Source of the DNA: Candidatus Micrarchaeota archaeon
GTDB lineage: Archaea; Micrarchaeota; Micrarchaeia; Anstonellales; Bilamarchaeaceae
DNA length: 39,023 bases
Assembly (NCBI GenBank): GCA_023248035.1
Contig: JAHFFJ010000005.1
Span: 1 to 39,023, forward strand
Direction: 5' to 3'
In this document: positions 1,522 through 17,377 of the stretch, piece by piece
Layout of the letters: each line of letters begins with the position of its first letter
How positions within the stretch are numbered: the stretch's first letter is position 1
The notes under the pieces: model-generated
Told to the model about the DNA's origin: nothing
The model's input: the letters and a program-made list of their open reading frames with translations, nothing else
Databases searched by the model: none
Position numbers and translations under genes: made by a program

Positions 1522-3159
1522 ATGCCAGAAAAAAAGACGAGATTCATTGTTATTACTGGCTCGATAATGTCCGGGCTTGGTAAAGGTATAGTAACTTCTT
1601 CTATCGCAAAACTCCTATCTGTCCGTGGATATCAAGCCATACCAGTGAAATTTGATGGTTACCTAAATGTTGATTGCGGCACCATGAATCCTTTCCGCCA
1701 CGGTGAAGTTTTCGTACTTGATGATGGAACCGAAGTAGATATGGATTTTGGAACCTATGAAAGATTTCTCAATAAGTCACTTTCAGGATTATGTTCTATT
1801 ACTGGAGGGAAGCTTTTCCAAAAAATAATTGAAAAAGAAAGGAAGGGAGAATATCTTGGAAGGGATGTGCAGTTTGTACCTCACCTTACTGATGAGATAA
1901 AAAGATGGGTGAAAGAGGTTGGAAAAGAGAGTGGAGCGGATTTTGTACTTATAGAAGTAGGTGGTACAATAGGAGACCTTGAAAACAGCTATTTTTTGGA
2001 AGCCATGCGACAGTTACGTTTTGAGGATGACAATATGGCATTTGTCCAGCTTACTTATGTTCCAAGTTTAAGTCCCGGCGAGCAAAAAACCAAACCCACC
2101 CAACAGGCAACAAGATTGCTCCAAAGTCTCGGTATACAACCAGACATAATACTCGTAAGAGAGCAGGAAAAACTTAATGAAGAATCAAAAAAGAAGATAA
2201 GCCTTTATTGCAATGTAGCTGAAGAGGCAGTTTTTGATGATCCTTTACTTAACACGGTTTATGAGCTTCCGGTTGTTTTGGAAAAACAAGGATTCTACAC
2301 TCAACTTGCTAAAACTCTTAAACTCCAGGAAAAAACTCCTGATATAAAAGACTGGGAAAAACGAGTGGAACGTATAGTAAAACCAAAAGACAACCCGATC
2401 AAGATAGCCATAGTGGGCAAGTATACTGCGGTAAAAGACGCTTACATTAGTGTGAGGGAAGCTTTGGTGCATAGTGCTGCTGCAGTTAATAGCGGGCTGG
2501 AGATAGGCTGGATAGAAGCAAGCGATCTTGAAAAACTGTATGATGTTGCTGAAGAACTCTCGGGATATGATGGGATTCTCGTTCCTGGAGGATTTGGAGA
2601 ACGTGGAATAGAAGGCAAGATCCGTGCGATAAAATACGCACGGGAAAACAAAATCCCCTACCTTGGACTTTGTTTAGGATTGCAATTGATGGTTGTTGAA
2701 TATGCAAGAAATGTATGCGAATTGGAGGGGGCAAACTCTACAGAGTTCGATAAAAAAACTGCGCATCCGATTATTTATATGCTTCCTGAAAAACAGCAAA
2801 TAGCAAGAATGGGAGGGACACTTAGGCTGGGCAGTTATGATTGTAACATAAAAAAAGAGAGTATAGCGCACAAGGCTTATGGTGATTTGGCACAGGAAAG
2901 ACATCGTCATAGATATGAGGTAAATCCTTCTTATGTCAAAGAACTCGAAAACCGGGGTTTGGTCATATCAGGAATTCATAAAAGTGGGTTAGTGGAAATA
3001 ACTGAGTGGAAGGATAGTTTTGGAATTGCAACTCAGGCTCATATAGAACTAAAAAGCAGACTGGAAACACCGGCACCTATTTTTGTGGAATTTATGAAGG
3101 CAGCAAAAGAGTATAGAAATAAACCAAAGAAATTTGCAAAGGAAACCCAGGGTGGTTAG
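1522..3159 (+). CDS. pyrG: CTP synthase
   Basis: GSIMSGLGKG, DGYLNVDCGTMNP, GEVFV, KTKPTQ; glutaminase motifs VPGGFG, GLCLGLQ, ERHRHRYE, QAHIE. Confidence 0.98.
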   Translation: MPEKKTRFIVITGSIMSGLGKGIVTSSIAKLLSVRGYQAIPVKFDGYLNVDCGTMNPFRHGEVFVLDDGTEVDMDFGTYERFLNKSLSGLCSITGGKLFQKIIEKERKGEYLGRDVQFVPHLTDEIKRWVKEVGKESGADFVLIEVGGTIGDLENSYFLEAMRQLRFEDDNMAFVQLTYVPSLSPGEQKTKPTQQATRLLQSLGIQPDIILVREQEKLNEESKKKISLYCNVAEEAVFDDPLLNTVYELPVVLEKQGFYTQLAKTLKLQEKTPDIKDWEKRVERIVKPKDNPIKIAIVGKYTAVKDAYISVREALVHSAAAVNSGLEIGWIEASDLEKLYDVAEELSGYDGILVPGGFGERGIEGKIRAIKYARENKIPYLGLCLGLQLMVVEYARNVCELEGANSTEFDKKTAHPIIYMLPEKQQIARMGGTLRLGSYDCNIKKESIAHKAYGDLAQERHRHRYEVNPSYVKELENRGLVISGIHKSGLVEITEWKDSFGIATQAHIELKSRLETPAPIFVEFMKAAKEYRNKPKKFAKETQGG

Positions 3160-4100
3160 AGCTTTAGATAGCTAATGGCATTGGCAAGTGCAACATGCAT
3201 ATGAGCAGCTGAATTGAAGCGATCATTAGGATTTGGTGCCATTGCTATCATAGTTATTTCTTCCACAGGTTTTGGCATTGACCTAAATTTAGCTGGTGAT
3301 GGTACCGGGGTAGTTTTATGAAGTTTGAGCAGATTGCCTATATCATTTTCCATTCTGGGAAGGGTATGAGCAAGCATTTGAAATAGAACTACACCAACCG
3401 AATAGATATCAGAACGAAGATCATGACAAATTCCTCCCAACTGCTCTGGCGCAGCATAACAAGCGGTACCATACCCACCAGAATTTTTTGGTGCAGCCAC
3501 CTTTTGAGAAATTCCAAAATCAATTATTTTTAGTAGCTGACCACTACGAAGCATCATTATGTTGTCTGGTTTGATGTCCCTATGCATTACACCACACGCG
3601 TGGACTGCGCTAAGCCCTGCGCATATTTCTGCTGCCACAAGAAGAGAGAGCTTAATTGAAAAGTGGTGATCTAATAGAATGGAAGTAAGTGACTTGCCAT
3701 CCAGATATTCAGTGACTAAGAAAGGCGATTCATTAAATTTACCCGAAAAAAGAGAGGTTACTACGGCTCGATGCTTTATTTCTTCTAGTAGAGCTATTTC
3801 TCTTAAAAAATGGCTCACAAAATAAGCACCTGCAGGTTGTTTAACTACAACAGTCCGCCCATCTTTTTTTCCAAGATAAACTGTTCCATGGCCACCTCGT
3901 TCTATATAATGAGTAAGTATTATACCAAAACGTGATAAGTCAGGAGCATCTTGGGGCAGGGTTCGGTGGTGGAGTTCTTGAATCCTGACTTCTTTATCAA
4001 AAACTTGGCGACCAACTACAGCCAAAAGAACAGGTGGAGTGGGATAACACCTAACTCCATATCTAAAGGCAGCTGAATCATAGACCGTTCTGACTGCCAT
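3156..4100 (-). CDS. Hanks-type Ser/Thr protein kinase (PknB-like catalytic domain, no transmembrane segment)
   Basis: RGGHGTVY, VVVK, alphaC REIA, HRDIKPDN, DFG, GTACYAAPEQ, DIYSVG, PNDRF. Confidence 0.93.
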   Translation of the reverse strand: MAVRTVYDSAAFRYGVRCYPTPPVLLAVVGRQVFDKEVRIQELHHRTLPQDAPDLSRFGIILTHYIERGGHGTVYLGKKDGRTVVVKQPAGAYFVSHFLREIALLEEIKHRAVVTSLFSGKFNESPFLVTEYLDGKSLTSILLDHHFSIKLSLLVAAEICAGLSAVHACGVMHRDIKPDNIMMLRSGQLLKIIDFGISQKVAAPKNSGGYGTACYAAPEQLGGICHDLRSDIYSVGVVLFQMLAHTLPRMENDIGNLLKLHKTTPVPSPAKFRSMPKPVEEITMIAMAPNPNDRFNSAAHMHVALANAISYLKL

Positions 4101-4138: not shown

Positions 4139-4819
4139 TTATGGGAGAAGAGCTACCTCTTTTCTAACATAGACATTTTCTTCACCTTCCAAAAGACGGG
4201 GAGAGCTAGAAATGTCAAAAGAACAATTATGGAATCTAAAGAACTTTTCAAAATCTGGAGGAAACCCTCTTCCAGCAACGTTGAAATTTTGGAGAGTAAC
4301 CATTGTAACAGTATAATGTTGTGCAATTTCAAAAAGATATTGTAAAAGCCTTACTCTCCATCCGCCATAGATTCTTGCTTTATCATCATCTAATTCAGGA
4401 GGACTACCTATCTTGAAACAGCCCTGAATATAGTAGAGATAGAGATTAGTTTTGTGGGAAATCGTTTGATTTTTAGTAGATTTAACTGGTTTTGATAAAA
4501 GAACACAGGATGAAGTCCCCACAGATCCAGGGAATGAATCGGCAGGCCCGCCATCTCGTAAAGATTCAGAACTACGTGTAAATAGCTCTAAATCTTCTAA
4601 TTTAGGGTAGTATAAAAGCCTAAATGGGTTTTCTCTTCCTGAAAATGCTTCTTTAGCTAGAACGATTAAACCAGACCCTCTTTGACCTATTGGATTTAGA
4701 ACAAAACTTTGGGAGAACATTGGGGGCTTATAAAGAACAGGCTCACCTGAAGCCAGTTTTCCCACCATGGTTCTTATTGCTTGGATATTAGGCAATTTTG
4801 GAGGAGACGTAGTCAACAT
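4139..4819 (-). CDS. Hypothetical protein, tandem paralog of 4861-5538
   Basis: Shares GSGLIVLA, YPxLEDxExFxRSSESL, FPGxVG, IQGCFxIGSPP, ARIYGGW, FEIA, GFPxDFEK and RxEVAL with its neighbour. Confidence 0.85.
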   Translation of the reverse strand: MLTTSPPKLPNIQAIRTMVGKLASGEPVLYKPPMFSQSFVLNPIGQRGSGLIVLAKEAFSGRENPFRLLYYPKLEDLELFTRSSESLRDGGPADSFPGSVGTSSCVLLSKPVKSTKNQTISHKTNLYLYYIQGCFKIGSPPELDDDKARIYGGWRVRLLQYLFEIAQHYTVTMVTLQNFNVAGRGFPPDFEKFFRFHNCSFDISSSPRLLEGEENVYVRKEVALLP

Positions 4820-4860: not shown

Positions 4861-5538
4861 TTAATCCTCAATAAGTGCTACTTCAGTTCTAGTAAATATA
4901 TTTTTATCTGGTATTTGATGGATATCGCCAAATATGGAAAAAGAATAGCCCATTTCACTGCTAATTTTCTCGAAATCTGCTGGAAACCCCCTAATACCAA
5001 TATTAGAATTATAAAAAACGACCAAATGTATATCGCTTTCTTTTGCAATTTCAAAAATACATTCGATAAGTCTTCTTTTCCATCCACCATAAATTCGTGC
5101 CCTATTAGGCTCTACCGCGGGAGGACTACCAATTCTGAAACAACCTTGGATAAAATTAATATTTAAATGAGGATTTAGGTAAACATCAGATCTCCCCTTA
5201 AGAGATGGAATCGAAGATCCACATATATCGAAGGGAGTGTAGGATAAAACACCAACCGCACCAGGAAATAAACTCGATGGACTCTGAGGCGTTAAAGATT
5301 CTGAACTTCTTGAAAAAATTTCAATATCTTCTAATTCAGGGTAGCAGATTAGCCGTGGACTTGGAGTGTTAGCTAAATTAAACGAGTAGCCTTGTGCTAA
5401 AACAATTAACCCACTACCACTTGCACTTCGTGCCTTCATTTTGAAAGTTGAACTGCCAGCTTCGTAAAGAATTTCTTTTCCAGACCATAGATCACGAGTT
5501 TTTTCTTTGAAGGCGCCAAATGTTTTTTGAATTTGCAT
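4861..5538 (-). CDS. Hypothetical protein, tandem paralog of 4139-4819
   Basis: Same colinear conserved blocks; near-identical length (225 vs 226 aa). Confidence 0.85.
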   Translation of the reverse strand: MQIQKTFGAFKEKTRDLWSGKEILYEAGSSTFKMKARSASGSGLIVLAQGYSFNLANTPSPRLICYPELEDIEIFSRSSESLTPQSPSSLFPGAVGVLSYTPFDICGSSIPSLKGRSDVYLNPHLNINFIQGCFRIGSPPAVEPNRARIYGGWKRRLIECIFEIAKESDIHLVVFYNSNIGIRGFPADFEKISSEMGYSFSIFGDIHQIPDKNIFTRTEVALIED

Positions 5539-5645
5539 ATAATTATAGTTAGTACCACGATATTAAAAAATGATTACTAATCGTAGATTAAGAAAAAGAT
5601 GGGCCCACGCGGGTTTTCGTATCTTTTTAGCACGCCCTTTTTTGG

Positions 5646-5666
5646 GCGCTTTTTACTAAAAAGCAC
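5646..5666 (-). repeat. REP-like hairpin copy at the start of tRNA intron 3
   Basis: Minus strand GTGCTTTTT-AGT-AAAAAGCGC followed by CCAAAAAAG. Confidence 0.7.
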
Positions 5667-5692
5667 AATCGAACCGCGAATCTCTACCATTC

Positions 5693-5723
5693 CGAGCTTT
5701 TGGAAAAAGCTCGACCAAAACTG
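5693..5723 (+). repeat. REP-like hairpin copy at the 3' end of tRNA intron 2 (inverted orientation)
   Basis: CGAGCTTTT-GGA-AAAAGCTCG followed by the tail ACCAAAACTG. Confidence 0.8.
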
Positions 5724-5868
5724 ATTTGCTAATTTTTGTTTTGTTTCATTCGCTCGCCTTTGAGGCTCGCATAAAACGTTACAAAAATGGTTTACAGCGG
5801 TCAGCGAATTTTCCAGCAGGAAAATTAAACTGACCAAAACCAAAAACCCGAAATGGGTTTTTAAACAA

Positions 5869-5905
5869 CCAGTTTTTGGTCAAACTTTTTTTCCAAAAAA
5901 GTTTG
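5869..5905 (-). repeat. REP-like hairpin copy at the start of tRNA intron 2
   Basis: Minus strand CAAACTTTTTT-GGA-AAAAAAGTTTG followed by the tail ACCAAAAACTGG. Confidence 0.8.
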
Positions 5906-6024
5906 TCAAGGTAGCGTCTTAACCACTGTCGTTTCAAATTTATAATCCGAGATAGTTCTCAGGTTAAAAAGTTGAATCAAAAACCAGTCAGCATCAAAAC
6001 CGAGTTTACGGTTTTGCAAACAGT

Positions 6025-6057
6025 CAGTTTTTGCCGCGCTTTTTCCTAAAAAGCGCG
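6025..6057 (-). repeat. REP-like hairpin copy at the start of tRNA intron 1
   Basis: Minus strand CGCGCTTTTT-AGG-AAAAAGCGCG followed by the tail GCAAAAACTG. Confidence 0.8.
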
Positions 6058-6098
6058 ATTCGACTATGGGCCCAATAATTGGATAGTGTTCACAATGA

Positions 6099-6106
6099 AT
6101 TTTAAA
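6099..6106 (-). promoter_or_regulatory. TATA box of the tRNA-Val gene
   Basis: TTTAAAAT on the minus strand, 26-33 nt upstream of the mature tRNA 5' end. Confidence 0.55.
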
Positions 6107-6325
6107 CTATACAGAAAAAGCATGGGTTTTATCCCAATTAGGATTTAGACCGGAAGGGCAAGCCTGTTTTGCAATATTTCTTACAGTATAACAAGGATCA
6201 TGTTCAGACATATAATGCAAAGCAAGACGAGCAAGATGGGTATTGATAGTTTTGATCTTTTGAATTGCTTTTTTTCTTTTAAGGACGCGTTTACTGGAAA
6301 GTAAATGTAATAGTTCTAGATCCAT
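6107..6325 (-). CDS. Small HEAT/ARM-repeat-like protein
   Basis: LLSSKRVLKRKKAIQKI...ALHYMSEHDPCYTVRNIAKQA fits the HEAT pattern LxDxxxxVRxxA; SD-like GGTG upstream. Confidence 0.6.
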   Translation of the reverse strand: MDLELLHLLSSKRVLKRKKAIQKIKTINTHLARLALHYMSEHDPCYTVRNIAKQACPSGLNPNWDKTHAFSV

Positions 6326-6462
6326 ATTGTCACCGACATATTTATACTATATACATAACTGTTTATAAAGATGTATTTTTATGTAGGTAGAATATTCAAT
6401 TAGACGTAAGAAATAGGATATAAACTCTAGTTGGCATGATAATACATATATTAGGTGTTTTT

Positions 6463-8208
6463 ATGACGTTTAAACGTTCCCCCATAATTTGCATACTAGG
6501 TCATGTAGACCATGGTAAAACAACCCTTCTTGATAGTGTAAGAGGAACTACAGTCGCAAAAAAGGAAGCAGGCGGCATAACACAAATGATAGGTGCAAGT
6601 TACGTTTCAAAAGAAGATGTTGATAGTATTGCAGGCGCACTTGCAGATAGGATGAAACTGGCTATGACCATACCCGGACTTTTATTCATAGATACACCCG
6701 GACATGAAGCATTCACCAATTTACGGGATCGTGGAGGGAGCCTTGCAGATCTCGCAGTATTAGTAGTTGATGTCAATCAGGGATTTCAGCCACAAACAAT
6801 AGAGAGTATAAAAATATTGAGACAGTACAAAACTCCATTCCTTATTGCAGCAAATAAGATAGATGCATTGAACGGATGGAAAAGCAACAAAACCACTTCT
6901 TTTATGGAATCTTTTGCCAAACAACCAGAGCACATAAAACAGAAACTTGATGAAAAACTTTACGAGGTTATGGGCAAGATTTCGGAATATGGATTTGACA
7001 GCGAACGCTTCGATAGGATAGGCGATTTCTCAAAACAAATAGCCATAGTACCTATAAGTGCCAAAACCAAAGAGGGCTTAAGTGAACTTCTTGTGCTCAT
7101 GGGCGGATTAAGCCAGAAATTTCTTGGTGATAGATTAGAGATAGAAGAAAATGGCAGAGGTAAGGGGAGTATAATTGAAGTCAAAGAGGAGAAAGGTTTA
7201 GGCACCACAGTGGATGTGATAATTTACGATGGGGTAATGAGAAAAAATGATGAGATAGCGTATATGAGTGCAGGCGGGATAACGAGAACCAGAGTGCGTG
7301 GCCTGCTTGAACCGAATCTTGGCGGGAAAGAAAAGTTTCTATTTATTGATGAAGTAGCTGCCGCTGCAGGAGTCAAAATTTATGCCCCAGATTTAGAAGG
7401 TGCAATACCGGGTTCGCCAATTGAAGTCATAAGAAATTTTGATGAGGAAAAGAAAGAGATAGAAGCCCAGTTGAAAAGTGTAATATTCCAGAACACCAAT
7501 GAAGATGGGGTGGTACTGCGTGCAGACAGCCTCGGTTCAGTTGAGGCACTAATAAGGCTGCTTAAGGAAGCGGGAATTGTTGTCAAAGATGCCGGAGTTG
7601 GAAATATAATAAGAAAAGATGTGATTTCTGCTTCGGTAGTATCTCAAAATGACCCTTTCCTTGGGGTTGTTCTTGGTTTCAACGTTAAGATACTTGATGA
7701 GGCTTTAGAGGAGAGCAAAAATAGTTCAATACCGATAATTCACAGCAACATAATTTATCGGCTTATAGATGAATACCAGGCTTGGGTGAAAACTGAAAAG
7801 GAGAAGATAAAGAAAAATGCACTCGATAATATTGTCTGGCCAGGTAAAATCAAGGTACTCTCAGGTTATGTGTTTCGTGCTTCTAAACCGGCCATATTCG
7901 GAGTTGACGTAATTGGAGGACGGGTAAAGAAGAATTATCGCCTAATGAACCATAATGGAGAGATAGTTGGCGAAATAAGGGAGATACAAAAAGAAAAGGA
8001 AAAGGTTGAGGAAGCAGGTTTGGGAGATCAGCTTGCAATATCATGCGATGGTATAGTGATTGGAAAAAATACCAATGAGGGCGATGTGCTTTACACTTAC
8101 ATGACAGTGGATGAAATTAAAAAATGGGAAACACAAGCTGCCATGCTAAATGATTCTGAAAAACAAGTTTTTGAAGAAATCAGAAGAATATTAAAGAAAT
8201 ATTTTTAG
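6463..8208 (+). CDS. infB: Translation initiation factor aIF5B (IF-2)
   Basis: RSPIICILGHVDHGKTT, EAGGITQ, DTPGHEAF, NKID, DSLGSVEAL, VFRASKPAI; start moved to ATG 6463 after SD AGGTG. Confidence 0.97.
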   Translation: MTFKRSPIICILGHVDHGKTTLLDSVRGTTVAKKEAGGITQMIGASYVSKEDVDSIAGALADRMKLAMTIPGLLFIDTPGHEAFTNLRDRGGSLADLAVLVVDVNQGFQPQTIESIKILRQYKTPFLIAANKIDALNGWKSNKTTSFMESFAKQPEHIKQKLDEKLYEVMGKISEYGFDSERFDRIGDFSKQIAIVPISAKTKEGLSELLVLMGGLSQKFLGDRLEIEENGRGKGSIIEVKEEKGLGTTVDVIIYDGVMRKNDEIAYMSAGGITRTRVRGLLEPNLGGKEKFLFIDEVAAAAGVKIYAPDLEGAIPGSPIEVIRNFDEEKKEIEAQLKSVIFQNTNEDGVVLRADSLGSVEALIRLLKEAGIVVKDAGVGNIIRKDVISASVVSQNDPFLGVVLGFNVKILDEALEESKNSSIPIIHSNIIYRLIDEYQAWVKTEKEKIKKNALDNIVWPGKIKVLSGYVFRASKPAIFGVDVIGGRVKKNYRLMNHNGEIVGEIREIQKEKEKVEEAGLGDQLAISCDGIVIGKNTNEGDVLYTYMTVDEIKKWETQAAMLNDSEKQVFEEIRRILKKYF

Positions 8209-8421
8209 GCATTTTACAACAATCAATTGACTAACCAATAACCTAACAAATCATACTTGAGCGCAGTGTGGTATTTTTCGGTGGTGGGGTTGTGTATTTT
8301 TTCGGTGGGTTTTGTATTTTTTTTATTTTTTTAGTTGTTCGCGTTAGGAATAGGTCTAGATTTTGTTAGGTAACGGAAATGGATATAATCACAAGCAAAC
8401 AATATGTGCATTGGTGTCAAA

Positions 8422-9444
8422 ATGATCATTGGTTTAACTGGTGAAAACTGCGCAGGAAAAAGCACAGTTGCAGAATACCTCATGAAAAAAGGGTTCTATT
8501 ACTATTCGCTTTCTGATGTTATAAGAGAAGAACTCAAGGCAGATGGAAAAGCAATTAGCCGCGAGAACCTTATTGCAAAGGGTAATGAATTAAGAGGGAA
8601 ACATGGACCAGGAGCACTTGGGGCAAAGATTGGCCAAAAACTCCAGAGTGATAAAAATTACGTCATCGATTCCATAAGAAATCCTGCCGAAGTGGATGAA
8701 CTTAGAAAAAGCGGAAACAACGGGCATGCAGTTTTCCACCTGTTATACATAACTGCACCAAGCGAGGTGCGTTTTGCAAGAATAAGGATTAGGAAGCGTG
8801 AGGAGGATCCGCAAACTTACCAAGCATTTGCCCATATTGAGAAACTAGAGATGGAAAACGTTGATAAGACAAAACAGAATATCAAGGGGACAATAGCCCT
8901 TGCAGAAAAGAAAGTAGTAAATGGTGGGGGATTAAACGAGCTTTATGATAGTGTCGATCGTACGCTTTCTGAACTTTCCGACAAATTTAAATTGGTCAGA
9001 CCAAGCTGGGATGATTATTTCATGCAGATAGCAAAGGTAGTAGCCTCACGAAGCAATTGTATGAAGCGAAAGGTTGCAGCCATAATTGTCAAGGATAAAC
9101 GGATCATTTCAAGCGGTTATAATGGTACGCCACGCGGAACAAAGAACTGCGCTGAAGGTGGGTGCCCAAGATGCAATAATTTCTCGGAAACTGGAAAGAA
9201 CCTTGAAGAATGCCTTTGCAGTCATGGCGAGGAAAACGCCATAGTTCAGGCAAGCTACCACGGTATAGAGATAAAGGACTCAATGATATATACTACATTT
9301 TCACCCTGTCTTCTTTGCACTAAAATGATCATAAATTCTGGATTGAAGGAAGTTGTTTATAACGCAGAATATCCGATGGGTGAAACACCGATGAAATTAC
9401 TTAAGGAAGCAGGAGTAAAAGTAAGGCAACACCAGGTGGATTAA
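8422..9444 (+). CDS. P-loop kinase-like domain fused to dCMP deaminase
   Basis: N-terminal IIGLTGENCAGKST...DSIRNPAEV; C-terminal RPSWDDYFM, SGYNGTP, HGEENA, SPCLLC (zinc deaminase); start at ATG 8422 after GGTG. Confidence 0.92.
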   Translation: MIIGLTGENCAGKSTVAEYLMKKGFYYYSLSDVIREELKADGKAISRENLIAKGNELRGKHGPGALGAKIGQKLQSDKNYVIDSIRNPAEVDELRKSGNNGHAVFHLLYITAPSEVRFARIRIRKREEDPQTYQAFAHIEKLEMENVDKTKQNIKGTIALAEKKVVNGGGLNELYDSVDRTLSELSDKFKLVRPSWDDYFMQIAKVVASRSNCMKRKVAAIIVKDKRIISSGYNGTPRGTKNCAEGGCPRCNNFSETGKNLEECLCSHGEENAIVQASYHGIEIKDSMIYTTFSPCLLCTKMIINSGLKEVVYNAEYPMGETPMKLLKEAGVKVRQHQVD

Positions 9445-10061
9445 GTAGACAAAGTTCCAGGAGAACGAATAGTTTCTGGTTCATCATCTAAACGTGAAGG
9501 TTTGGGTTGAAGTGCAGGAGGAATAACAAAACAACCAAATTCTGAGAGGAAAGAAATATCTCCATAACTGATAATACTTCTTGCAAAAAGTAACTTTGAA
9601 GCAGCTATTAACTTTGAAGGATTGGACGCTTTAATTTGACTAAAACCAACAGGCCATTCAGATTCTGCATCTAAGAAAAGCATTATTGCAGCACTTTCAC
9701 GACGAATAGAGAAGGGTACTTTACCTAAAAGTTCAAACGATTTTACCATTATAGGATCGGAAAAACACTCAAATGGATTTACCTGGACATTTGGTGGAGA
9801 TCTTGGAGAAGGAAGAGTAGGTCTTACTGAAGAGTGAGGACCGCATGTATCATCATTGACCAAACTAGCATCATTGACCAAACTAGCTTGGGTCGGATAA
9901 GGTTGCTCCACGAGGGGGGCTTGTATTTTTTTTGCAAAATATGGCGGGGGGGCAACTAGGGTGGCAGCTGGAGGAGTAGGAAGGCAAGTAAGTGCACCTT
10001 GTGAATGGAACATGCCTCTTAAAGTTCTGTTATCAATACTAGTAGGAGGTCTAGAAGTCAT
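9441..10061 (-). CDS. Pro-rich hypothetical protein
   Basis: Long ORF filling the gap; probable start MTSRPP at 10061; no recognisable motif. Confidence 0.6.
   Translation of the reverse strand: MTSRPPTSIDNRTLRGMFHSQGALTCLPTPPAATLVAPPPYFAKKIQAPLVEQPYPTQASLVNDASLVNDDTCGPHSSVRPTLPSPRSPPNVQVNPFECFSDPIMVKSFELLGKVPFSIRRESAAIMLFLDAESEWPVGFSQIKASNPSKLIAASKLLFARSIISYGDISFLSEFGCFVIPPALQPKPSRLDDEPETIRSPGTLST
9851..9886. repeat. Perfect 18-bp tandem duplication (encodes ASLVND twice)
   Basis: CATCATTGACCAAACTAG at 9851-9868 and 9869-9886. Confidence 0.9.
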
Positions 10062-10175
10062 GACTAATTCTAACAGTCTGTAAATAAAAGCTTTGTGGTT
10101 GTTAAGGGAAAAACGCGTTCTTTTTAAATATATCAATTAAGAGAAGTTAAAAAGAGCGAGAGTCATAGTATATAC

Positions 10176-10246
10176 GGCAACGATGAGAACACCGTCCCAG
10201 TCGGTAGCCATAAGGCGATGACGAGAAGAGTAGCTATTGAGTTGCC
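10176..10246 (+). ncRNA. C/D-box guide sRNA; predicted 23S targets G2251 and U2438 (E. coli numbering)
   Basis: Terminal stem GGCAAC/GTTGCC; box C-like ACGATGA 10180-86; guide ACCGTCCCAGT complementary to the 23S P-loop ACUGGGGCGGU; degenerate D' CGGT; C' ATGACGA 10218-24; guide AGAGTAGCT; D-like TTGA 10237-40; TTAAAAAG upstream. Confidence 0.75.
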
Positions 10247-10336
10247 ATTTTACAGTAGAAAAATTACAGCAAAAAAGGGCAAAAAAACAATTTATATTCT
10301 TTCCCGCCCTATTTTGATGGTAGGGAGGTAAATAGT

Positions 10337-11080
10337 ATGAAACTTATTATTCAGGATGCTCCAGCCCTTAAATCGGCAATAGACTCGATAGTTTGTCTGG
10401 TAGAAGAAGGGCAGTTTGAGGTAAAGGCAGATGGACTTCACCTTAAGGCTATGGATCCATCGCAAATTTCGATGGTGTCTTTTACCATGCCCAAGGAAGC
10501 CTTTGTTGAATACAATTTACCAGAAGAGATGAAGATAGGGGTGGATATAGGGCAACTTGCAAATGTACTTGCCAGAGGTAAAAAAGGAGAAAAAGCCGAG
10601 CTTTCAGTCGAAGAAGGAAGGCTGGTAGTAAAGTTTTATGGTGACAAGCACAAAAGGACATTCAAGGTCCCACTTATAGAAACTGGCGATCGAGTGCAGC
10701 GGGAACCGAAGATAGATTTCACTAACATGGCAAAGATAAGAGCGGATGCAATAAAAGAAGCCCTTAAGGATGCGAAACTAATCAGTTCACATATAAAGCT
10801 CCATTTTACACCGCAGCAATTCATAGTAGAGGTACGCGGCGAAAATGGAGATGTGAAAGCAGAATTCGACATAGGAAGCGCCGAATTGATAGAGCTCAAA
10901 ACCCAAACCCCGGCAAAAGCAACCTTCCCCCTTCAATATCTTGAGGATATGGTTAAGGCAACTTCAGTATCATCGGTGGTAACTGTAAATCTAGAAACCG
11001 ATCGACCACTTAGGATAGAATACGACATAGAAGGAGCAAAAGTTGTATACTATCTTGCACCAAGGATAGAGACCGATTGA
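10337..11080 (+). CDS. pcn: DNA polymerase sliding clamp PCNA
   Basis: KAMDPSQISMV, FPLQYL, PLRIEY, YYLAPRIE; 247 aa; SD GGAGGT. Confidence 0.97.
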   Translation: MKLIIQDAPALKSAIDSIVCLVEEGQFEVKADGLHLKAMDPSQISMVSFTMPKEAFVEYNLPEEMKIGVDIGQLANVLARGKKGEKAELSVEEGRLVVKFYGDKHKRTFKVPLIETGDRVQREPKIDFTNMAKIRADAIKEALKDAKLISSHIKLHFTPQQFIVEVRGENGDVKAEFDIGSAELIELKTQTPAKATFPLQYLEDMVKATSVSSVVTVNLETDRPLRIEYDIEGAKVVYYLAPRIETD

Positions 11081-11109
11081 ACAAAATAATTTTGTTCAAA
11101 AAAAGTACG

Positions 11110-11131
11110 AATCTACTCGGTAGGGTAGATT
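11110..11131 (+). terminator. Possible terminator hairpin after pcn
   Basis: AATCTACTC-GGTA-GGGTAGATT followed by T-rich sequence. Confidence 0.3.
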
Positions 11132-11166
11132 TATCATTTTGTAATTCATATTTTTGTATGATAAAC

Positions 11167-12006
11167 ATGAAACTAGTTTTGATGCGCAGGAGAACAATAT
11201 CAGACGAATCTTTAACTGAAACTAGAGCAGCTCAGATAGCAAATAATGGATCCTTGAGAGAGGTAGTTAGAACACTAACAGAAAATAAACAATCTGGCGG
11301 ATATAGGGATACCCCTCACTTTACCCTAGAAGTTCAGGATAGATTAGCAGAAAGATTTGTTGGTTTGGTAGATAAAGGATCAAGAACTAGGAATGCATAT
11401 GCGGCTATCTCTTTAGGATTAACGTTGATGGTTGGAATTGGTTATTACATAAGGGGAACCACGGAAGAACGAGAGACACGAACAGAACCAACACACCAAT
11501 ACAATCCACCAACACCATGGACTTCAGAAACTTTATTATCCTGTACAATAACTATGAAACCATGCAAAAAACTAACACTAGTACTACCCCCAGGGTTAGT
11601 ATCGGAAAGAGGGGAAGATCAAATTGGGGAGGGAATAGATCTGACTTATTGTTCGGCTTTAGATAAGTGGGAAGGACCGATAGAACCAACCGTTATTACA
11701 CCAAAAACAAACCTAACTCCGTTGTGGAAATTTTTGGGCTATGCCGGAGTAGGTGGTTTAGTTTTTCTAATTGGTACTGTACTTAGAGCAAGAAGACAGA
11801 AAGACGAGGATGAACAGCTTGCTAGAACAGCTCAGGGGATTCTTGGAAGCGGAACATTAACCTCAACAGAAGCAATCCAAAATCTTAGGGTTTTTGTAGG
11901 CCAGAGAATTCCTGGAAGTGGAACTGAGTTAGAGCAATATACCCGGGAAGAAGAAGCAGAAGACACTTCGGGAGATAAACCAAGGGTATTCATCAGAAAT
12001 ATCTAA
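11167..12006 (+). CDS. Hypothetical membrane protein (two TM segments); start uncertain
   Basis: Hydrophobic segments AAISLGLTLMVGIGYYI and FLGYAGVGGLVFLIGTVL. The track's TTG start overlaps the pcn stop, so a downstream ATG was chosen. Confidence 0.65.
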   Translation: MKLVLMRRRTISDESLTETRAAQIANNGSLREVVRTLTENKQSGGYRDTPHFTLEVQDRLAERFVGLVDKGSRTRNAYAAISLGLTLMVGIGYYIRGTTEERETRTEPTHQYNPPTPWTSETLLSCTITMKPCKKLTLVLPPGLVSERGEDQIGEGIDLTYCSALDKWEGPIEPTVITPKTNLTPLWKFLGYAGVGGLVFLIGTVLRARRQKDEDEQLARTAQGILGSGTLTSTEAIQNLRVFVGQRIPGSGTELEQYTREEEAEDTSGDKPRVFIRNI

Positions 12007-12104
12007 TATCAATACATCTAGTATTAATACGTCAAAAAGCGTAGTGATACACAGGTTTAAATAGGATGGGTGGCATAAAATATATAATCGTAGGTGGAAT
12101 GAAA

Positions 12105-12980
12105 ATGAAGAAAACTGAATATTATTTCGCCCAGGAGACAGAGGATAAGCTTCAGGCTATAGATGCAGGAAAAATGGATGATTACGATTTGCCTGAATTC
12201 TCTAAAGAAGTGCCTCTTTCTTCAAGGAAAAACGAAAATGTAGATACAATTACTGTTGAATACGACTGGAAAGGCTCGAAAAGCGAGAGTATAAGGGTAA
12301 AAAGAATAGATTTCCGTAAAGGTGAGGAATTTTCAGAGCTTTATCGAGTGGCGGCACGTGATGGAGCCGACAGTATAACGTTCAAATACAACAATGTTAC
12401 TTACATAATGCGTAAGACATTACGCGAAGTTGCCCAGTCTTTATACAAGGCTTATTCAAAAATAAAAGATGGACTAGAAAACATAGTAGCTTATATCAGA
12501 ACTGCTCTTGGAAACGATTATATTATTTCCAAAGTGGAACAAGAATCTTGGGCATTTGATAGGCGGATAGCCAAAAAAGGGATAAATTACATTGATGTTG
12601 ATGATCTCCCAGCAAAAAACAAGAGCACCCTTTGTGAGTCAATAATTGAACGGGTAGCTGATCTCCATACAAACAGCCTTATTATAGGTCGATTTACATT
12701 AAACAACATCTTAATTGGTCAAAATAGTATCAAACTTACCGACCTTAGGAAGTTAAGGGTGACAAGACGAAAATCTTTCCTCATTGACGAACTTAAGAGC
12801 ATTCTCCAATACCTTTTTGCAATAGGAGTTGCAACAAGAGAAGATGTTTATTACGCTGCAGCTTATTATGCAACACATAACGAGGAGAACTGTAAAGAAT
12901 GGTACTACAGCCAGACAAGGAAGAAGGCAACCGACCAGATGGATGTAGTAAACCGAATCGAGCAGGCAGTTTACAACTAA
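12105..12980 (+). CDS. Hypothetical protein with a degenerate kinase-like C-terminal lobe
   Basis: RVADLHTNSLIIGRFTLNNILI...IKLTDL resembles LHxxxxxHGDLxxxNIL...LID but lacks the catalytic HxD; SD AGGTG upstream of 12105. Confidence 0.7.
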   Translation: MKKTEYYFAQETEDKLQAIDAGKMDDYDLPEFSKEVPLSSRKNENVDTITVEYDWKGSKSESIRVKRIDFRKGEEFSELYRVAARDGADSITFKYNNVTYIMRKTLREVAQSLYKAYSKIKDGLENIVAYIRTALGNDYIISKVEQESWAFDRRIAKKGINYIDVDDLPAKNKSTLCESIIERVADLHTNSLIIGRFTLNNILIGQNSIKLTDLRKLRVTRRKSFLIDELKSILQYLFAIGVATREDVYYAAAYYATHNEENCKEWYYSQTRKKATDQMDVVNRIEQAVYN

Positions 12981-13018
12981 AACACATCTTTTTAAGATAA
13001 ACCACACAATATTTACTT

Positions 13019-13681
13019 ATGACTCAAGCCCAGATACATAGGCCAACCGAAACAAAAAAAACTTTCAGAGCAAGGCTTTTAGATGACCTAACACCAGAAG
13101 GAGTTAGAATTTACACTAATTATAGAAAAACATTAGCAAATGGAGCTGATATTACAGAAGCTAGAGAAGAAGCACGAAAACGGGTGCGAACCTATGTAGG
13201 TTCGGTTTTTGCTGCAGCTGGAGTATATCGGTTAACAGCAACTTTTTATGGAGTAGGTGCTTGGGATACCGGATTACAATTTTCTGCACAGGAAACCTGG
13301 ATGAAGGATGCAAGTCCGCTTGCTGTTTCGGTAGTAACTACAGTTAGTAGTGCAATGACTCCAAATACCAAAAGCATTTTGGCACAGATTGTGATTCCAA
13401 TTGAAATTGCACTGTCATTAGTTCGAATTTATGTTGAGCAACGAATTTGGAGGAAAATGAAAATTACGCCAAATCCACAAGGCACATTACTTACACCATA
13501 TGTTGATGGAGTAATCGAGATGGGATATAAGGCTATTGTTAAATATCCTGAAAATGATGAGCAACGCCTTAATGTAGGGCTAATTGGCATTTATGGAAAT
13601 TTAATAAGATTAGCAAACGATGCACTTCTTTACTTCATAGGGAAGAAGTTAAACTTGGATAAGGAATCGGTGCGGGATTAG
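13019..13681 (+). CDS. Hypothetical protein
   Basis: 220-aa ORF; TTTTAAG about 25 nt upstream; no recognisable motif. Confidence 0.65.
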   Translation: MTQAQIHRPTETKKTFRARLLDDLTPEGVRIYTNYRKTLANGADITEAREEARKRVRTYVGSVFAAAGVYRLTATFYGVGAWDTGLQFSAQETWMKDASPLAVSVVTTVSSAMTPNTKSILAQIVIPIEIALSLVRIYVEQRIWRKMKITPNPQGTLLTPYVDGVIEMGYKAIVKYPENDEQRLNVGLIGIYGNLIRLANDALLYFIGKKLNLDKESVRD

Positions 13682-15978
13682 ATTACTTCCACCGTACTTG
13701 AACCTCCATTATTCTTTTCCCGATTTATTCTATAGCTTGATGCAAAATCACTGCCCATAAAAGCTTCATCATGAGTTATAACAAAGACTTGTTTTACTAC
13801 TTCTGGAACCCTAAATTGCAAGGCGTGTGAAAGGAGTTCAACAGCTTGTGAATCGAGGTTATGAGTTGGTTCATCCAGAATAAGCCAGCTTAGTTTGGGA
13901 GTAAGAACCATGGCAAGAGCCATCCTAAGGGCAAGAGCGGCGCTTGCTCTTTCCCCACCGCTCGCTATACTATCAAGTGCTTTCCAATTACCTCCATCAT
14001 TAACTTCGAAAACGTAATCACGTTCACTTACAGCAAGTCTAAGGCCATGATAATTTTTGTATGGATAGACTATAGACCAGATTTCATTCATAGTACCATT
14101 TATTGCCTCGATTAAGGTGGAACGTAGGGAGGTTTGTGTCTCTAGTAGTGCAAGTTTATAGATTGCCAATTGCTCAATAAGAAGGGATAGTTGAGCAATT
14201 TGGGAAGAGAGTAAGTTGATGGAAGAAAGTTCGGTTTGGATCATCTTTAACATGTCCAAAGAGAAGGAATGCTTGGTTTCTGCTGCTTTTTGTAAAGAGA
14301 GGTTTTTTTCTTTTTCCAAGCCCAATTTTTCCATAGAAACCCTAAACTCTTCAAATTGAACAGGATTAAAATTTGTTGATTGAAGCTTGGATTTTGTTGT
14401 AGAAAGATTCTTAGTAACGTCTTCAAGTTCTTTTTTCTTTTCTATGAGAGATTTTAACAGGGTGGATTCTATCTGGATTTTTTCAATTTCCTTATTTAAG
14501 AGTTCGAGTTTCTTTTCAATTGATGATTTTTGCTCTTTTAGTAAGCTAAGGGCTTTTTCAGTAGATTCTTTCTTTACAATTAGCGGTGTTGATAGTAGTA
14601 TTTCAGATGAAATAGAAGGAATTTGTGCCAAAAGTAAAGAGATTTTAATTAGCCTGCCCTTTAAGCCATCAATTTCTTTTCTTAGGGCTGGAACAACAGA
14701 GATGATTTCAGCTACACGAACTTTCTTTGCTGCACTCAGACGATCTTTTTCAGCTTTTATATGTATTAATGATGATGGGGTTATTGAAGCTGAACAAAGC
14801 GGGCACTCTGAAACATCAGATTTTAGTTTGGAAACGATATCCACAATTTCTATAATTTCCCGCTCTAATGATTTCTTTTCTGATTCCAACGAGAGGAGTT
14901 GTTGTTCCTTAGCAGTTTGTAAATTTGAAAGAGATTCATTTGTATCAGAACCTCGTTCTTTCTTTAAATTTTCCTCCATAGTTTGAAGCCTTGCTTTACT
15001 ATCAGAAAGGGATTTGATTTTCGCTTCTATCATACCTGATTCCTTAGATAGTACGGAAAAATTTACCTCTATTGATTTCATTTCAACCTGACAGGCTGAG
15101 CGTTGTGAATTAAGATCTAGACTTTTAGAGTGAAGTATGTTATGGGTATTTTCATCAATTTGATTGTTTAAATCCTTAGAAAGTGAATCATACCTTGCAG
15201 ATAGGCGAATTGTTTCCTTTTCAAGTAAATCAAAACGCTCTTTTTCTGCCTTCATAGCAGAATAGGATGCTACCAAGCGGGCATAATCCTCAGAAAGTTT
15301 TTGATGAGATTGTTTTAGGGTGATTAGGTCAGTTTCTGAAGCCTTAAGAGCAGTAGAGTGTATTTTTTCTTTTTCTTCCAGCTCTTTTGTTTTTTCTATG
15401 TTTATACCAGATGATAGGGTTTCTTTTTTGGAATTAAATTTGTTTATAACGGCAGTTACATTTGTTCTGGCAAGCTCGAACTTATCAAGTCCTAAAAGAG
15501 TATCAACTTCCTCTTTTCTGCGTTTTGGATCGAGATTTAGGAAATGCTCAATATTGTTTTGTTCAGAGTAAATTGCGCGCGTAAAAAGATCGTAATCGAT
15601 ACCTAATAGCAACTGGATATAGGAATTTACTGCAACTGGACCGTTTTCAACAAGCGAATTATCACGGAAAATTTCTGCTTGGGAAGATGTTCCCTTTTTA
15701 CGCTCGATTGTACGTTCAATCCGATAGTTATGATTGTCGCATTCAAATTCCAGGACGATTTTTACACTTGATTCATTAAGACGAAAGACGTTGTCAAGTT
15801 TGACTTTTCTTCTTTCTAATGCAGGAAACGTACCAAAAAGAGCGAAACTTATCGCTTCAAGTATGCTCGATTTTCCTGCACCCATTATGCCCACAAGTAG
15901 GTTGGTGCCCTTACGGAATTCAAGGAAGCTATCAGCATGAGAACGCCAATTAACTAGGCGAATGGATTTTATCATCAT
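13678..15978 (-). CDS. rad50: Rad50/SbcC SMC-family ATPase
   Basis: NWRSH, Walker A GIMGAGKSS, Q-loop YSEQ, coiled coils with central zinc hook CPLC, signature ASGGE, Walker B ILDEPT, H-loop ITHD. Confidence 0.93.
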   Translation of the reverse strand: MMIKSIRLVNWRSHADSFLEFRKGTNLLVGIMGAGKSSILEAISFALFGTFPALERRKVKLDNVFRLNESSVKIVLEFECDNHNYRIERTIERKKGTSSQAEIFRDNSLVENGPVAVNSYIQLLLGIDYDLFTRAIYSEQNNIEHFLNLDPKRRKEEVDTLLGLDKFELARTNVTAVINKFNSKKETLSSGINIEKTKELEEKEKIHSTALKASETDLITLKQSHQKLSEDYARLVASYSAMKAEKERFDLLEKETIRLSARYDSLSKDLNNQIDENTHNILHSKSLDLNSQRSACQVEMKSIEVNFSVLSKESGMIEAKIKSLSDSKARLQTMEENLKKERGSDTNESLSNLQTAKEQQLLSLESEKKSLEREIIEIVDIVSKLKSDVSECPLCSASITPSSLIHIKAEKDRLSAAKKVRVAEIISVVPALRKEIDGLKGRLIKISLLLAQIPSISSEILLSTPLIVKKESTEKALSLLKEQKSSIEKKLELLNKEIEKIQIESTLLKSLIEKKKELEDVTKNLSTTKSKLQSTNFNPVQFEEFRVSMEKLGLEKEKNLSLQKAAETKHSFSLDMLKMIQTELSSINLLSSQIAQLSLLIEQLAIYKLALLETQTSLRSTLIEAINGTMNEIWSIVYPYKNYHGLRLAVSERDYVFEVNDGGNWKALDSIASGGERASAALALRMALAMVLTPKLSWLILDEPTHNLDSQAVELLSHALQFRVPEVVKQVFVITHDEAFMGSDFASSYRINREKNNGGSSTVEVI

Positions 15979-16047
15979 TCGTTTGATGGGCAGAAGAGAA
16001 TAAAACCCGAAGGGGCGCGATTTTATACCTTGGCTGCGATTATTTGA

Positions 16048-16173
16048 GTGATGATGACCAAGGTGATCACTGAGTCACGCCCTAAGCTTGTGCCCTTCTA
16101 GTTTGTCAAAATTAGTTGGGCCAGGGGAAACCCGGCCACGGTTAATGACGATGACGATTGACGTGCGGTCTGA
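16048..16173 (+). ncRNA. Long C/D-box guide sRNA; predicted 16S targets C1402 and the 3'-terminal GAUCACCU region
   Basis: Box C ATGATGA 16051-57; 12-nt guide CCAAGGTGATCA; D' CTGA 16070-73; 77-nt structured insert; C' ATGACGA 16151-57; 12-nt guide TTGACGTGCGGT; D CTGA 16170-73; TATA-like TTTTATAC at 16021-28. Confidence 0.82.
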
Positions 16174-16246
16174 CCAACTTTTTTAGGAAAAAAGTTGGAC
16201 AAAAAACTAACTGTAATTTTAGGAAAAAGGTTTGACCAAAAACTAG
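16174..16246 (+). repeat. REP-like hairpin copy plus a degenerate second copy abutting the sRNA D box
   Basis: CCAACTTTTTT-AGG-AAAAAAGTTGG (16174-98) with tail ACAAAAAACT; partial copy TTTTAGGAAAAAGGTTTGACCAAAAACTAG at 16217-46. Confidence 0.8.
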
Positions 16247-16339
16247 GTATAAAAGGTCATGCAAAAGTTCAGTTAAAACTCCGAAGCAAAATGCACCTTA
16301 TGAATACTCTTCAGGTGCATAAATGAGCGTACGATCTAA

Positions 16340-16439
16340 ATATCGGATAGGTAGGAATTATAAATATCCGATATATATGAAAAAATATTAAAGACAGAAG
16401 GAGGATATCGGATACATAACATTATAAGCTATCCGATAT
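16340..16439. promoter_or_regulatory. Duplicated inverted-repeat operator, each copy bracketing a TATA-like box, upstream of the Fic-HTH gene
   Basis: ATATCGGATA-N15-TATCCGATAT at 16340-16374 and 16405-16439; both spacers contain ATTATAA. Confidence 0.75.
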
Positions 16440-16450
16440 ATGATATATTT

Positions 16451-17377
16451 ATGGCTCTGGAGGAAAGGACATATGAAAGGATACTCCGCAAACAAGAAGC
16501 GCTAGACCAATTAAGACCATTCAACCAAGGTGCACTCCATAAATTACAGGAAACTTTCCGCGTTGATATGACCTATAATTCGAATGCTATAGAAGGCAAT
16601 TCACTAAGTCTGAGCGAAACAAAACTAGTGCTGGAAGAAGGCCTGACCATAGGGGGCAAGACATTCAAGGAGCATTTGGAGGTTACAAACCACGCTAAGG
16701 CAATAGATTTTGTCGAATCATTAGTTAATAAAAAGGAAATTGTCGAGATCGATGTGCTTAATATTCATGCATTAGTCCTGGATCGAATAAATCCAGAGAA
16801 CGCTGGTTTTTACAGGATAGGGGGAGTTAGAATAAGCGGTACTGACTACATACCCCCTAGTACTGCTAAAGTCCCACACCTCATGAAGGAGATATATCGC
16901 CTTCTCAATATTAAGAGCGGAGAACCAATAGAAACTGCGGCAATTATTCATCAGAAATTTGTTGATATACATCCTTTCATTGATGGAAATGGAAGAACAG
17001 CACGTTTGCTTCTTAATCTATACCTCATGCGAAATGGTTATCCACCTGTGATAATCCTGCAAGTTGAAAGAAAAAAATATATACGAACTATAATGCAATC
17101 GAGAATGGAAAATAACATAACAGTATTTGCAAATTTTGTGGCTAAGGCAGTAGAAAGATCCCTCGATATTTATTTGGATTCTTTAGGGACAGAATCAAAA
17201 GAATACTTAACGCTTGCAGAGGCTGCCAAGATAAGTAGGAATGGATATAGTGGGGAATACCTTAGCCTTTTGGCCAGAACCGGTAAGATAGGTGCGATAA
17301 AATTTGGTAGGAACTGGAAAATAACTAAGGAAGCCTTAAGTGAATACGAAATTATGAACGAACGAAGAAGGGATTAA
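16451..17377 (+). CDS. Fic-family protein (class II) with C-terminal helix-turn-helix
   Basis: Canonical HPFIDGNGRTAR; N-terminal inhibitory motif SNAIEGN; C-terminal YLTLAEAAK...LARTGKIGAIKFGRNWKIT (excisionase-type HTH). Confidence 0.93.
   Translation: MALEERTYERILRKQEALDQLRPFNQGALHKLQETFRVDMTYNSNAIEGNSLSLSETKLVLEEGLTIGGKTFKEHLEVTNHAKAIDFVESLVNKKEIVEIDVLNIHALVLDRINPENAGFYRIGGVRISGTDYIPPSTAKVPHLMKEIYRLLNIKSGEPIETAAIIHQKFVDIHPFIDGNGRTARLLLNLYLMRNGYPPVIILQVERKKYIRTIMQSRMENNITVFANFVAKAVERSLDIYLDSLGTESKEYLTLAEAAKISRNGYSGEYLSLLARTGKIGAIKFGRNWKITKEALSEYEIMNERRRD

Follow-up and report, generated by a model that had tools for sequence, protein, structure and literature searches.

The tRNA-Val(GAC) gene of a Candidatus Micrarchaeota archaeon is split into four exons by three introns, all of which begin with the same short hairpin. 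The gene lies in the window analyzed here, the 39,023 nucleotides (nt) at positions 1 to 39,023 of contig JAHFFJ010000005.1 (C67) in assembly GCA_023248035.1. The hairpin unit is probably the terminal module of one homologous family of archaeal bulge-helix-bulge (BHB) introns that has proliferated among the stable-RNA genes of this Micrarchaeota lineage. The source genome (G000) comprises 1.17 Mb in 83 contigs, is 90% complete, and has a G+C content of ~39.5%. By the aIF5B gene, its nearest relatives are metagenome-assembled genomes (MAGs) of Candidatus Micrarchaeota (DPANN) with identities of no more than 78%; a metagenome scan with aIF5B for closer relatives gave no match above 77% identity.

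How can such a gene be recognized? Scans of the window with ARAGORN and Rfam reported no tRNA and missed tRNA-Val(GAC). This silence is a failure of detection, which orthologs resolve. Once the three introns are taken out, the gene is the same as that of an intronless relative (L020) at every base (72 nt compared), which bears out the assignment of exons and introns made in an earlier, sequence-only reading of the window. No RNA run is listed that contains window positions 5300-6500. The X1-X3 contigs over window positions 5000-17000 are fragmented, breaking at units, and show no joints across introns, which bears neither way on splicing.

Each intron opens with one unpaired base after the 5' splice site, followed by the hairpin unit and then a tail. 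The unit consists of a variable stem of 4 to 5 bp, a C:G pair, 4 to 7 T:A pairs, a loop of 2 to 3 nt, and a tail ending in CAAAA(A)C. The sequence-only reading had described a common hairpin near the 5' splice site of every intron and inverted copies at both ends of intron 2, and both descriptions hold, coordinates included (Table 1). On the RNA, the 3' arm of the inverted copy in intron 2 overlaps TCGG, the 3' strand (H3') of the splice-site helix described below. A strict 15-nt core occurs twice in the window, compared with 0.28 expected. That reading placed every unit of the window within or beside an RNA gene. tRNA-Val does contain four of the five copies, but the fifth, at 16173, is intergenic; no host RNA gene was recognized there, the only C/D-box-like matches being subthreshold (Rfam, E 0.29 to 3.5). 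Directly upstream of this copy, window positions 16032-16173 (+) hold box C/D-like motifs (GUGAUGA...CUGA, and UGACGA with a 12-nt spacer and CUGA).

Why does the hairpin stand so close to the splice site? In archaeal introns, the cut falls after the second base of a bulge. The motif is described as a 4-bp helix H that has two 3-nt bulges, one on each strand, and helices h and h' on either side (PMC4090602, PMC3488258). For introns 1, 2, and 3, the exon 4-mers GTCG, TTGA, and TTCG stop 2 nt short of the 5' junction, and their partners in the intron, CGAC, TCGG, and CGAA, stop 2 nt short of the 3' junction, which gives two 3-nt bulges and a 4-bp H in each case. The hairpin starts 1 nt past the 5' junction in all three introns, and this is the position of h'. 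The role of h', which the sequence-only reading had missed, accounts both for the place of the hairpin, ~1 nt away from the 5' splice site, and for the lasting pairing of its stem. In intron 3 the T-stem runs straight into H, giving the strict motif, and in intron 2 the anticodon stem does likewise; intron 1 has no helix h and shows the relaxed form.

Does this geometry extend beyond the window? A catalogue of 73 introns was drawn up by a custom spliced alignment and compared with random re-pairings of its 5' and 3' sites. All four H pairs at the exact spacing were found in 27 of the 73, compared with a permuted mean of 4.1 and a maximum of 11. They were present in 18 of 32 introns that begin with the unit and 9 of 16 that end with it, and in 5 of 34 without a unit, many of these last being alignment artifacts.

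Across the genome, a regular expression for the core finds 110 distinct loci with at least three outer pairs, compared with 0 to 3 in five mononucleotide shuffles (both strands); counted by strand, there are 208 matches, versus 0 to 3 units in shuffled genomes. Among 93 oriented units, the fourth outer pair, on which selection did not depend, is formed in 78 (permutation mean, 39; maximum, 53), and the fifth is at chance. At its foot the hairpin has four base pairs whose sequence changes between units, giving 34 distinct 4-nt arms, while the pairing is kept; the compensatory covariation of the outer stems that had been noted in the window is real. In the tail-oriented frame the loops are purine rich (AGG in 42, GG in 15, and AGT in 9 of 93). 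A covariance model derived from just the five copies in the window (E <= 0.01) gave at least 82 matches, a lower bound, since 150 of 1091 first-look candidates were scored. These comprise 64 in tRNA genes, 2 in 16S and 2 in 23S rRNA genes, and 14 elsewhere, so that 68 of the 82 lie inside stable-RNA genes, and ~80% of the units fall in roughly 1% of the genome. This is the enrichment that the sequence-only reading had anticipated from such a scan when it proposed a repeat family that is concentrated in stable-RNA genes and builds introns there.

Only 3 tRNAs in the genome pass the Rfam cutoff, and ARAGORN finds 6 with introns allowed, compared with 6 to 39 in congeners. The 39 tRNAs of one congener (G008) were used as guides and aligned to 56 clusters of hairpins by a custom spliced dynamic program. 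Thirty clusters score at least half of the maximum, and 27 of the 30 spliced products are recognized as tRNAs by ARAGORN. These 30 candidate genes contain 1 to 6 gaps of at least 10 nt each, some of which are alignment errors, and hold 65 of the 110 regular-expression units. Eight further tRNA regions were found at lower scores or by eye (two Ala, two Arg, a Tyr-like, Gln, Gly, and the 3' end of an Ala gene at a contig edge). By the author's reading, 84 of the 110 loci are in tRNA genes, 19 are elsewhere, and 5 look like chance matches without a tail; two more flank an insert in the 23S rRNA near the sarcin-ricin loop. Almost every tRNA gene of the genome is affected. The 16S gene (C76:21593-23322, minus strand) is 1730 nt long, compared with 1478 model positions, and by eye holds at least three inserts of ~50 to 75 nt, two of them starting with the unit; one insert interrupts the conserved GATTAGATACCC stretch targeted by universal primers. 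No unit was found inside the RNase P and signal recognition particle (SRP) RNAs, which were located below Rfam cutoffs.

The longer introns share an elaborate anatomy. Read 5' to 3', a long member opens with one base and hairpin 1; there follow the tail, one to three internal hairpins, in each of which A and T runs enclose a variable GC core, a second tail (tail'), and hairpin 2, and two bases come last. Alignment and a consensus fold show the tail paired with the distant tail' in a closing helix, and in an alignment of eight copies of ~210 nt, 12 of 61 consensus pairs are maintained through two-sided changes. On the RNA, the 5' and 3' hairpins have complementary loops, so the termini are true inverted repeats rather than one RNA motif present twice. 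Two ideas about the outer stems were dropped. One saw in them exon mimics or a target duplication, the 5' arm of the 3' hairpin resembling the exon 4-mer in two introns; the likeness exists because both pair with the same strand, and it fails at G:U pairs. The other, a mirror rule by which the arm of the 5' hairpin is complementary to exon 2, found no match by eye in two introns.

Homology between introns in different hosts covers their whole length, at 76 to 96% between different tRNAs and positions. Window intron 2 has seven further copies that are 76 to 89% alike, in the T-loop of an Arg tRNA, in Glu, Gln, and Leu tRNAs, in the D-loop of Thr, at 37/38 of Pro, and in 23S rRNA; the Val 37/38 intron and the Arg T-loop intron agree at 85% over 215 nt. 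Intron 3 resembles introns in two other T-loops, those of tRNA-Val(TAC) on C9 (96% alike) and of a Thr tRNA (88%), and one in the D-loop of a Ser tRNA (93%). Intron 1 and the intron in the D-loop of a second tRNA-Val, on C59, are 78% alike. Two D-loop introns share 96% over 74 nt, and other pairs reach 96 to 98%. The copies also have a preferred direction, which can be read since the closing helix is asymmetric. Units at 5' ends are S-type in 19 cases and A-type in 3, and those at 3' ends are A-type in 14 and S-type in none, with 39 ends unclassifiable. The configuration is thus sense in 33 of 36 classifiable ends, and the eight long copies all run in the sense direction of their host RNA.

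How widespread is the family? The hairpin-plus-tail pattern was surveyed in 81 genomes of the archaeal family, MAGs that are 67 to 97% complete, so absences are soft; the reversed pattern, used as a control, matched 3 times in the source genome. The pattern itself matches 102 times there. Within the genus, there are 1 match in G004, 2 in G008 (the congener with 39 standard tRNAs), 13 to 31 in most genomes, and 52 in G091; outside the genus, three genera have 22 to 83, and most genera are at background. Two members of the genus, G003 and G012, have 6 detectable tRNAs each and yet only 13 to 23 matches; diverged units or introns of another type must be what interrupts their tRNA genes. Among 31 aIF5B loci in relatives, 19 have a recognizable tRNA-Val(GAC), 8 of them intronless and ~11 with one or two introns, so the empty sites that the sequence-only reading expected do exist. 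Copies are neither randomly distributed nor lacking in presence/absence polymorphism, the two findings that would have spoken against it. A T-loop intron, and three introns in one gene, occur only in the window tRNA-Val(GAC) among the recognizable orthologs. In two loci (L016 and L010), the introns are minimal, with 28 to 30 nt that are hardly more than a hairpin and the H3' strand.

What would remove so many introns? The genome encodes an EndA of 391 amino acids that matches PDB 4fz2, the epsilon2 enzyme of ARMAN-2, end to end (E 1e-129), with Pfam tRNA_int_endo in two stretches. The ARMAN-2 epsilon2 enzyme is described as cleaving both strict and relaxed motifs in vitro (PMC3239211). The earlier suggestion that the insertions are tolerated through the splicing endonuclease agrees with this gene for a broad-specificity enzyme, by which the introns would be excised. 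In the pre-tRNA, the exon 4-mer would pair with the intron 4-mer to form helix H, placing each splice site in a 3-nt bulge, and the hairpin, 1 nt past the 5' cut, would supply h'. In long members, the CAAAA tail would pair with the GTTTTG of tail' and close a compact core of several hairpins, while the second, inverted hairpin would abut the 3' splice site, its outer 3' arm of 4 nt doubling as the H3' strand. The epsilon2 endonuclease could then cut both bulges, and a ligase could join the exons.

The features of the window are collected in Table 1. A T5 run at 5590-5599 comes after the tRNA-Val gene, and introns genome-wide hold sense-strand T5-T7 runs too. Beyond it, on the minus strand, two adjoining frames (4139-4819 and 4861-5538) encode mutually similar proteins of ~225 amino acids each, with shared motifs near both ends; a protein-kinase-like frame (3156-4100) is their neighbor.

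Table 1. The tRNA-Val(GAC) gene, its introns, and the hairpin units of the window
Feature	Positions	Strand	Remarks
tRNA-Val(GAC) gene, 4 exons and 3 introns	6073..5600	-	Spliced product equals intronless ortholog L020
tRNA-Val(GAC) exons	6073..6059, 5925..5904, 5689..5668, 5613..5600	-	
Intron 1, 133 nt, D-loop	5926..6058	-	H helix GTCG/CGAC between two 3-nt bulges; relaxed HBh'
Intron 1, 5' hairpin (h')	6035..6057; tail 6034..6026	-	Preceded by T; 5-bp GC stem, T5, loop AGG, A5; 47.7 bits
Intron 2, 214 nt, canonical 37/38 site	5690..5903	-	H helix TTGA/TCGG; anticodon stem is h
Intron 2, 5' hairpin	5881..5905; tail 5880..5871	-	Loop GG; outer pairs extend 2 nt into exon; 44.1 bits
Intron 2, 3' inverted copy	5693..5723 (hairpin 5693..5713, tail' 5714..5723)	+	36.8 bits
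Intron 3, 54 nt, T-loop	5614..5667	-	H helix TTCG/CGAA; hBHBh' geometry
Intron 3, 5' hairpin	5646..5666; tail 5645..5637	-	Loop AGT; 41.9 bits
Fifth unit, hairpin and tail, intergenic	16173..16209	+	Degenerate second unit behind; top covariance-model match, 49.5 bits

Several observations weigh against the reading of the units as ends of a family of BHB introns. (i) In the minimum free energy (MFE) fold of the whole precursor (z = -10), H and the hairpin are reproduced for intron 1 only; the MFE fold of intron 2 is a rod formed by pairing between its two terminal hairpins, and that of intron 3 has a different pairing. The putative BHB assignments of introns 2 and 3 rest on sequence complementarity, not on the fold. 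(ii) The intron catalogue contains boundary errors, and two tRNA-Val T-loop introns score 2 of 4 H pairs automatically but 4 of 4 with a manual junction. (iii) In introns that end with the unit, the 4-bp foot of the 3' hairpin and the 4-bp helix H are alternative partners of the same four bases; the two compete, and splicing alone leaves the conservation of the 3' hairpin unexplained. (iv) The complementary loops of the two termini point to symmetry at the DNA level or to a rod-like alternative fold. (v) The sense T5-T7 runs inside introns look like archaeal termination signals. (vi) We infer splicing, production of the tRNAs, and the way in which copies spread. (vii) The 14 of 82 model matches (19 of 110 regular-expression loci) outside recognized RNA genes are not explained by a pure "intron" label.

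These last copies immediately precede start codons, immediately follow stop codons, or form doublets of ~70 nt, always with the hairpin facing the functional sequence and the tail pointing away. Six are directly upstream of a ribosome-binding site and ATG (C55:677, C62:4089, C81:5451, C32:11276, C69:24327, and C45:22159); all six have the order tail' and then hairpin, with the hairpin towards the gene, and two have a longer leader in common. Another unit (C64:9296-9332, minus strand) is directly 3' of an intronless tRNA-Leu(GAG), and one (C43:10373-10394) lies 5 nt upstream of the 5' end of a tRNA-Ala. A reading of the ~70-nt doublets on C83 and C75 as mRNA introns was dropped, as no open reading frame is interrupted. 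At C83:3990-4170, in a region with no long reading frames, two copies of a 28-nt direct repeat, separated by ~20 nt, closely precede a 72-nt hairpin doublet.

How, then, might the copies have spread? If the units do belong to a BHB-intron family, the tentative first choice is DNA-level copying without a dedicated transposase, by ectopic recombination or template switching between RNA genes, with selection for spliceability as the filter; this is a plausible route that falls somewhat short of being probable. Reverse splicing at the RNA level has a clearly smaller chance, a strand-specific transposase is more doubtful still, and other routes share what is left. The hallmarks of transposons are present only in part. 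Terminal inverted repeats exist, with hairpin and tail inverted at both ends and complementary loops. Filled and empty tRNA-Val sites, however, differ by the insert alone, with an ambiguity of 0 to 1 nt, and there is no target-site duplication. A conserved 23-nt pattern taken from the long element had no match among viral contigs.

Could the spread of these sequences take place at the RNA level? Excised and possibly circular introns would pair through the 4-nt arm near their 3' end, be inserted by the endonuclease and ligase acting in reverse, and be copied back into DNA. Taken as an explanation in its own right, this is unlikely. It fits the strict sense orientation (19 versus 3 and 14 versus 0), the lack of target duplication, and the choice of hosts, which are the most abundant EndA substrates (tRNA, 16S, and 23S), with RNase P and SRP RNAs free of units. 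In 9 of 16 introns that end with the unit, the 3'-terminal arm is complementary, with exact BHB spacing, to the exon 4-mer; this would also be expected, but the same complementarity is needed for splicing after any kind of insertion and does not set one route apart from another. A search of the 90%-complete genome for a reverse transcriptase domain was negative, and the untranslated and intergenic copies need another route or must lie in transcripts. We know of no report of reverse splicing by EndA and a ligase.

The mechanism favored in the sequence-only reading, a nonautonomous DNA transposon resembling MITEs (miniature transposable elements with inverted repeats) or REPINs, fares worse and is distinctly improbable. 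It would be mobilized in trans, for example by an HUH/Y1 enzyme acting on the single-stranded DNA of highly transcribed RNA genes, and the introns would be tolerated insertions. The true inverted termini with complementary loops, the copies outside RNA genes, and the ~100-fold range in copy number among congeners all suit it, and lack of duplication together with fixed orientation would fit a Y1-type enzyme working on single-stranded DNA, judging from what is generally known of IS200/IS605. The genome does have two nearly identical IS200-like Y1_Tnp genes, at C15:17134-17598 and C45:41610-42074 (L072 and L073). Their flanks, however, are conserved GC-rich hairpins unlike the unit, no unit is nearby, and the genes with their flanks are an insertion sequence separate from the intron family; the proposed search for Y1 genes bounded by the unit thus came out negative for both. 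Among the 81 genomes surveyed for the pattern, a Y1 match is present in only 3 of 13 with at least 25 pattern matches, and in several background genomes (e.g., G064 and G042), within the limits set by MAG completeness. No TnpB-type (Zn-ribbon) domain was found in the 90%-complete genome, DDE transposases not having been searched, and the three window junctions show no conserved target tetranucleotide. The extragenic location expected of repetitive extragenic palindromic (REP) elements and REPINs does not apply to the great majority of model matches, although intergenic DNA should also tolerate units. With unrelated Y1 flanks, no co-occurrence, at most 1 nt of duplication, and a single orientation, this part of the earlier account is not supported.

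That there was no mobility at all, the hairpins being alike because BHB introns need a helix next to the bulge in an AT-rich genome and the introns being old and vertically inherited, can draw on the h' position of the hairpin, the ~39.5% G+C, and tRNA-Val D-loop introns that share a site in several genomes and look like common descent, but it is hardly credible given homology of 76 to 96% over 54 to 215 nt across tRNAs, positions, and 23S rRNA, which already contradicts it, as well as the near absence of units from shuffled sequence, the 2 units in a congener with 39 standard tRNAs, and the 8 intronless orthologs.

The BHB-intron family, as preferred here, invites comparison with several known systems. 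Like REP/REPIN-RAYT systems and the ends of IS200/IS605 elements, it consists of short multicopy hairpins, single or in inverted doublets, with no target duplication and a Y1 gene in the genome. Unlike in those systems, most copies lie within RNA genes, the Y1 genes are neither flanked by units nor found where units are, and the position of the hairpin is explained by the splice motif.

A second comparison is with the introner elements of eukaryotes, DNA transposons in protein genes whose target duplications help to form splice sites and which the spliceosome removes. In both cases a repeated element makes new introns since the splicing machinery of the host removes it; in Micrarchaeota, the hosts are stable RNAs, removal is predicted to depend on a protein endonuclease, and no transposon hallmarks comparable to those of introners were found. 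One bold speculation, on balance an unlikely one, is that the family is an archaeal counterpart of introners: a self-folding, nonautonomous mobile intron that brings its own splice-site helices, is guided to a 4-nt exon target by the 4-nt foot of its 3' hairpin, and, once excised, re-enters tRNA, 16S, or 23S through the host endonuclease and ligase before being fixed in DNA. If that were true, the splicing machinery would itself be the transposition machinery.

The intron-rich tRNAs of Candidatus Micrarchaeum acidiphilum (ARMAN-2) are nearer in kind. There, 56% of tRNA genes are reported to be disrupted, and the introns assayed were 13 to 25 nt long (PMC3239211, PMC3488258). The two organisms have in common the phylum and the three-unit endonuclease, and ARMAN-2 introns, too, are described as occupying 37/38, 59/60, and further positions, in BHB motifs of both the strict and the relaxed form. 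They differ in that only 3 tRNAs are detectable by a standard model in the present genome, the introns reach 214 nt, and a single repeat family is involved; the descriptions of ARMAN-2 in these two papers, as far as their text was available, mention no repeat family.

Together with these ARMAN-2 tRNAs, the closest known phenomenon is the "intron transposition" of Thermoproteales, in which similar BHB introns are found in different tRNAs (Fujishima et al. 2010, as cited in PMC4090602, PMC3239211, and bioRxiv 10.64898/2026.10.13.758758). As these citing papers present it, the resemblance is threefold. (i) Similar BHB introns occupy different isoacceptor tRNAs, at canonical and noncanonical positions and several to a gene. 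(ii) The expansion is lineage specific, in a host with a broad-specificity endonuclease. (iii) The mechanism of spread is unexplained. The review PMC4090602 calls the mechanism of archaeal intron transposition unknown, and a 2026 Asgard preprint (10.64898/2026.10.13.758758), in the text available, tested whether copying, mobile elements, or reverse transcription could be responsible, without arriving at a general route. Unlike Thermoproteales, with their alpha2beta2 enzyme, the present case concerns DPANN Micrarchaeota with an epsilon2 enzyme. As far as the citing papers describe the older case, it also differs in its modular anatomy, with terminal hairpins on a variable 4-bp foot, a closing helix of inverted tails, and internal hairpins, and in that 16S, 23S, and some nongenic sites are occupied too. 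A literature search of main texts, excluding the 2010 Thermoproteales paper and supplements, found no description of a hairpin-ended intron family.

For the question of how introns spread, the window points to a sharper system: one family with defined ends and ~100 terminal units in a 1.2-Mb genome, versus almost none in some congeners. The orientation rule and an endonuclease of a type that is structurally solved and can be assayed make the rival models of spread testable. There are practical consequences as well. Standard tools detect 3 to 6 tRNAs in a 90%-complete genome, so such MAGs seem tRNA poor in quality checks, and 16S inserts inside conserved stretches could hide such organisms from amplicon surveys. 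Set beside the known cases, what is new is the epsilon2 phylum context, the hairpin-ended, inverted-repeat anatomy tied to the splice motif, the occupation of 16S, 23S, and nongenic sites, the orientation rule, and the scale.

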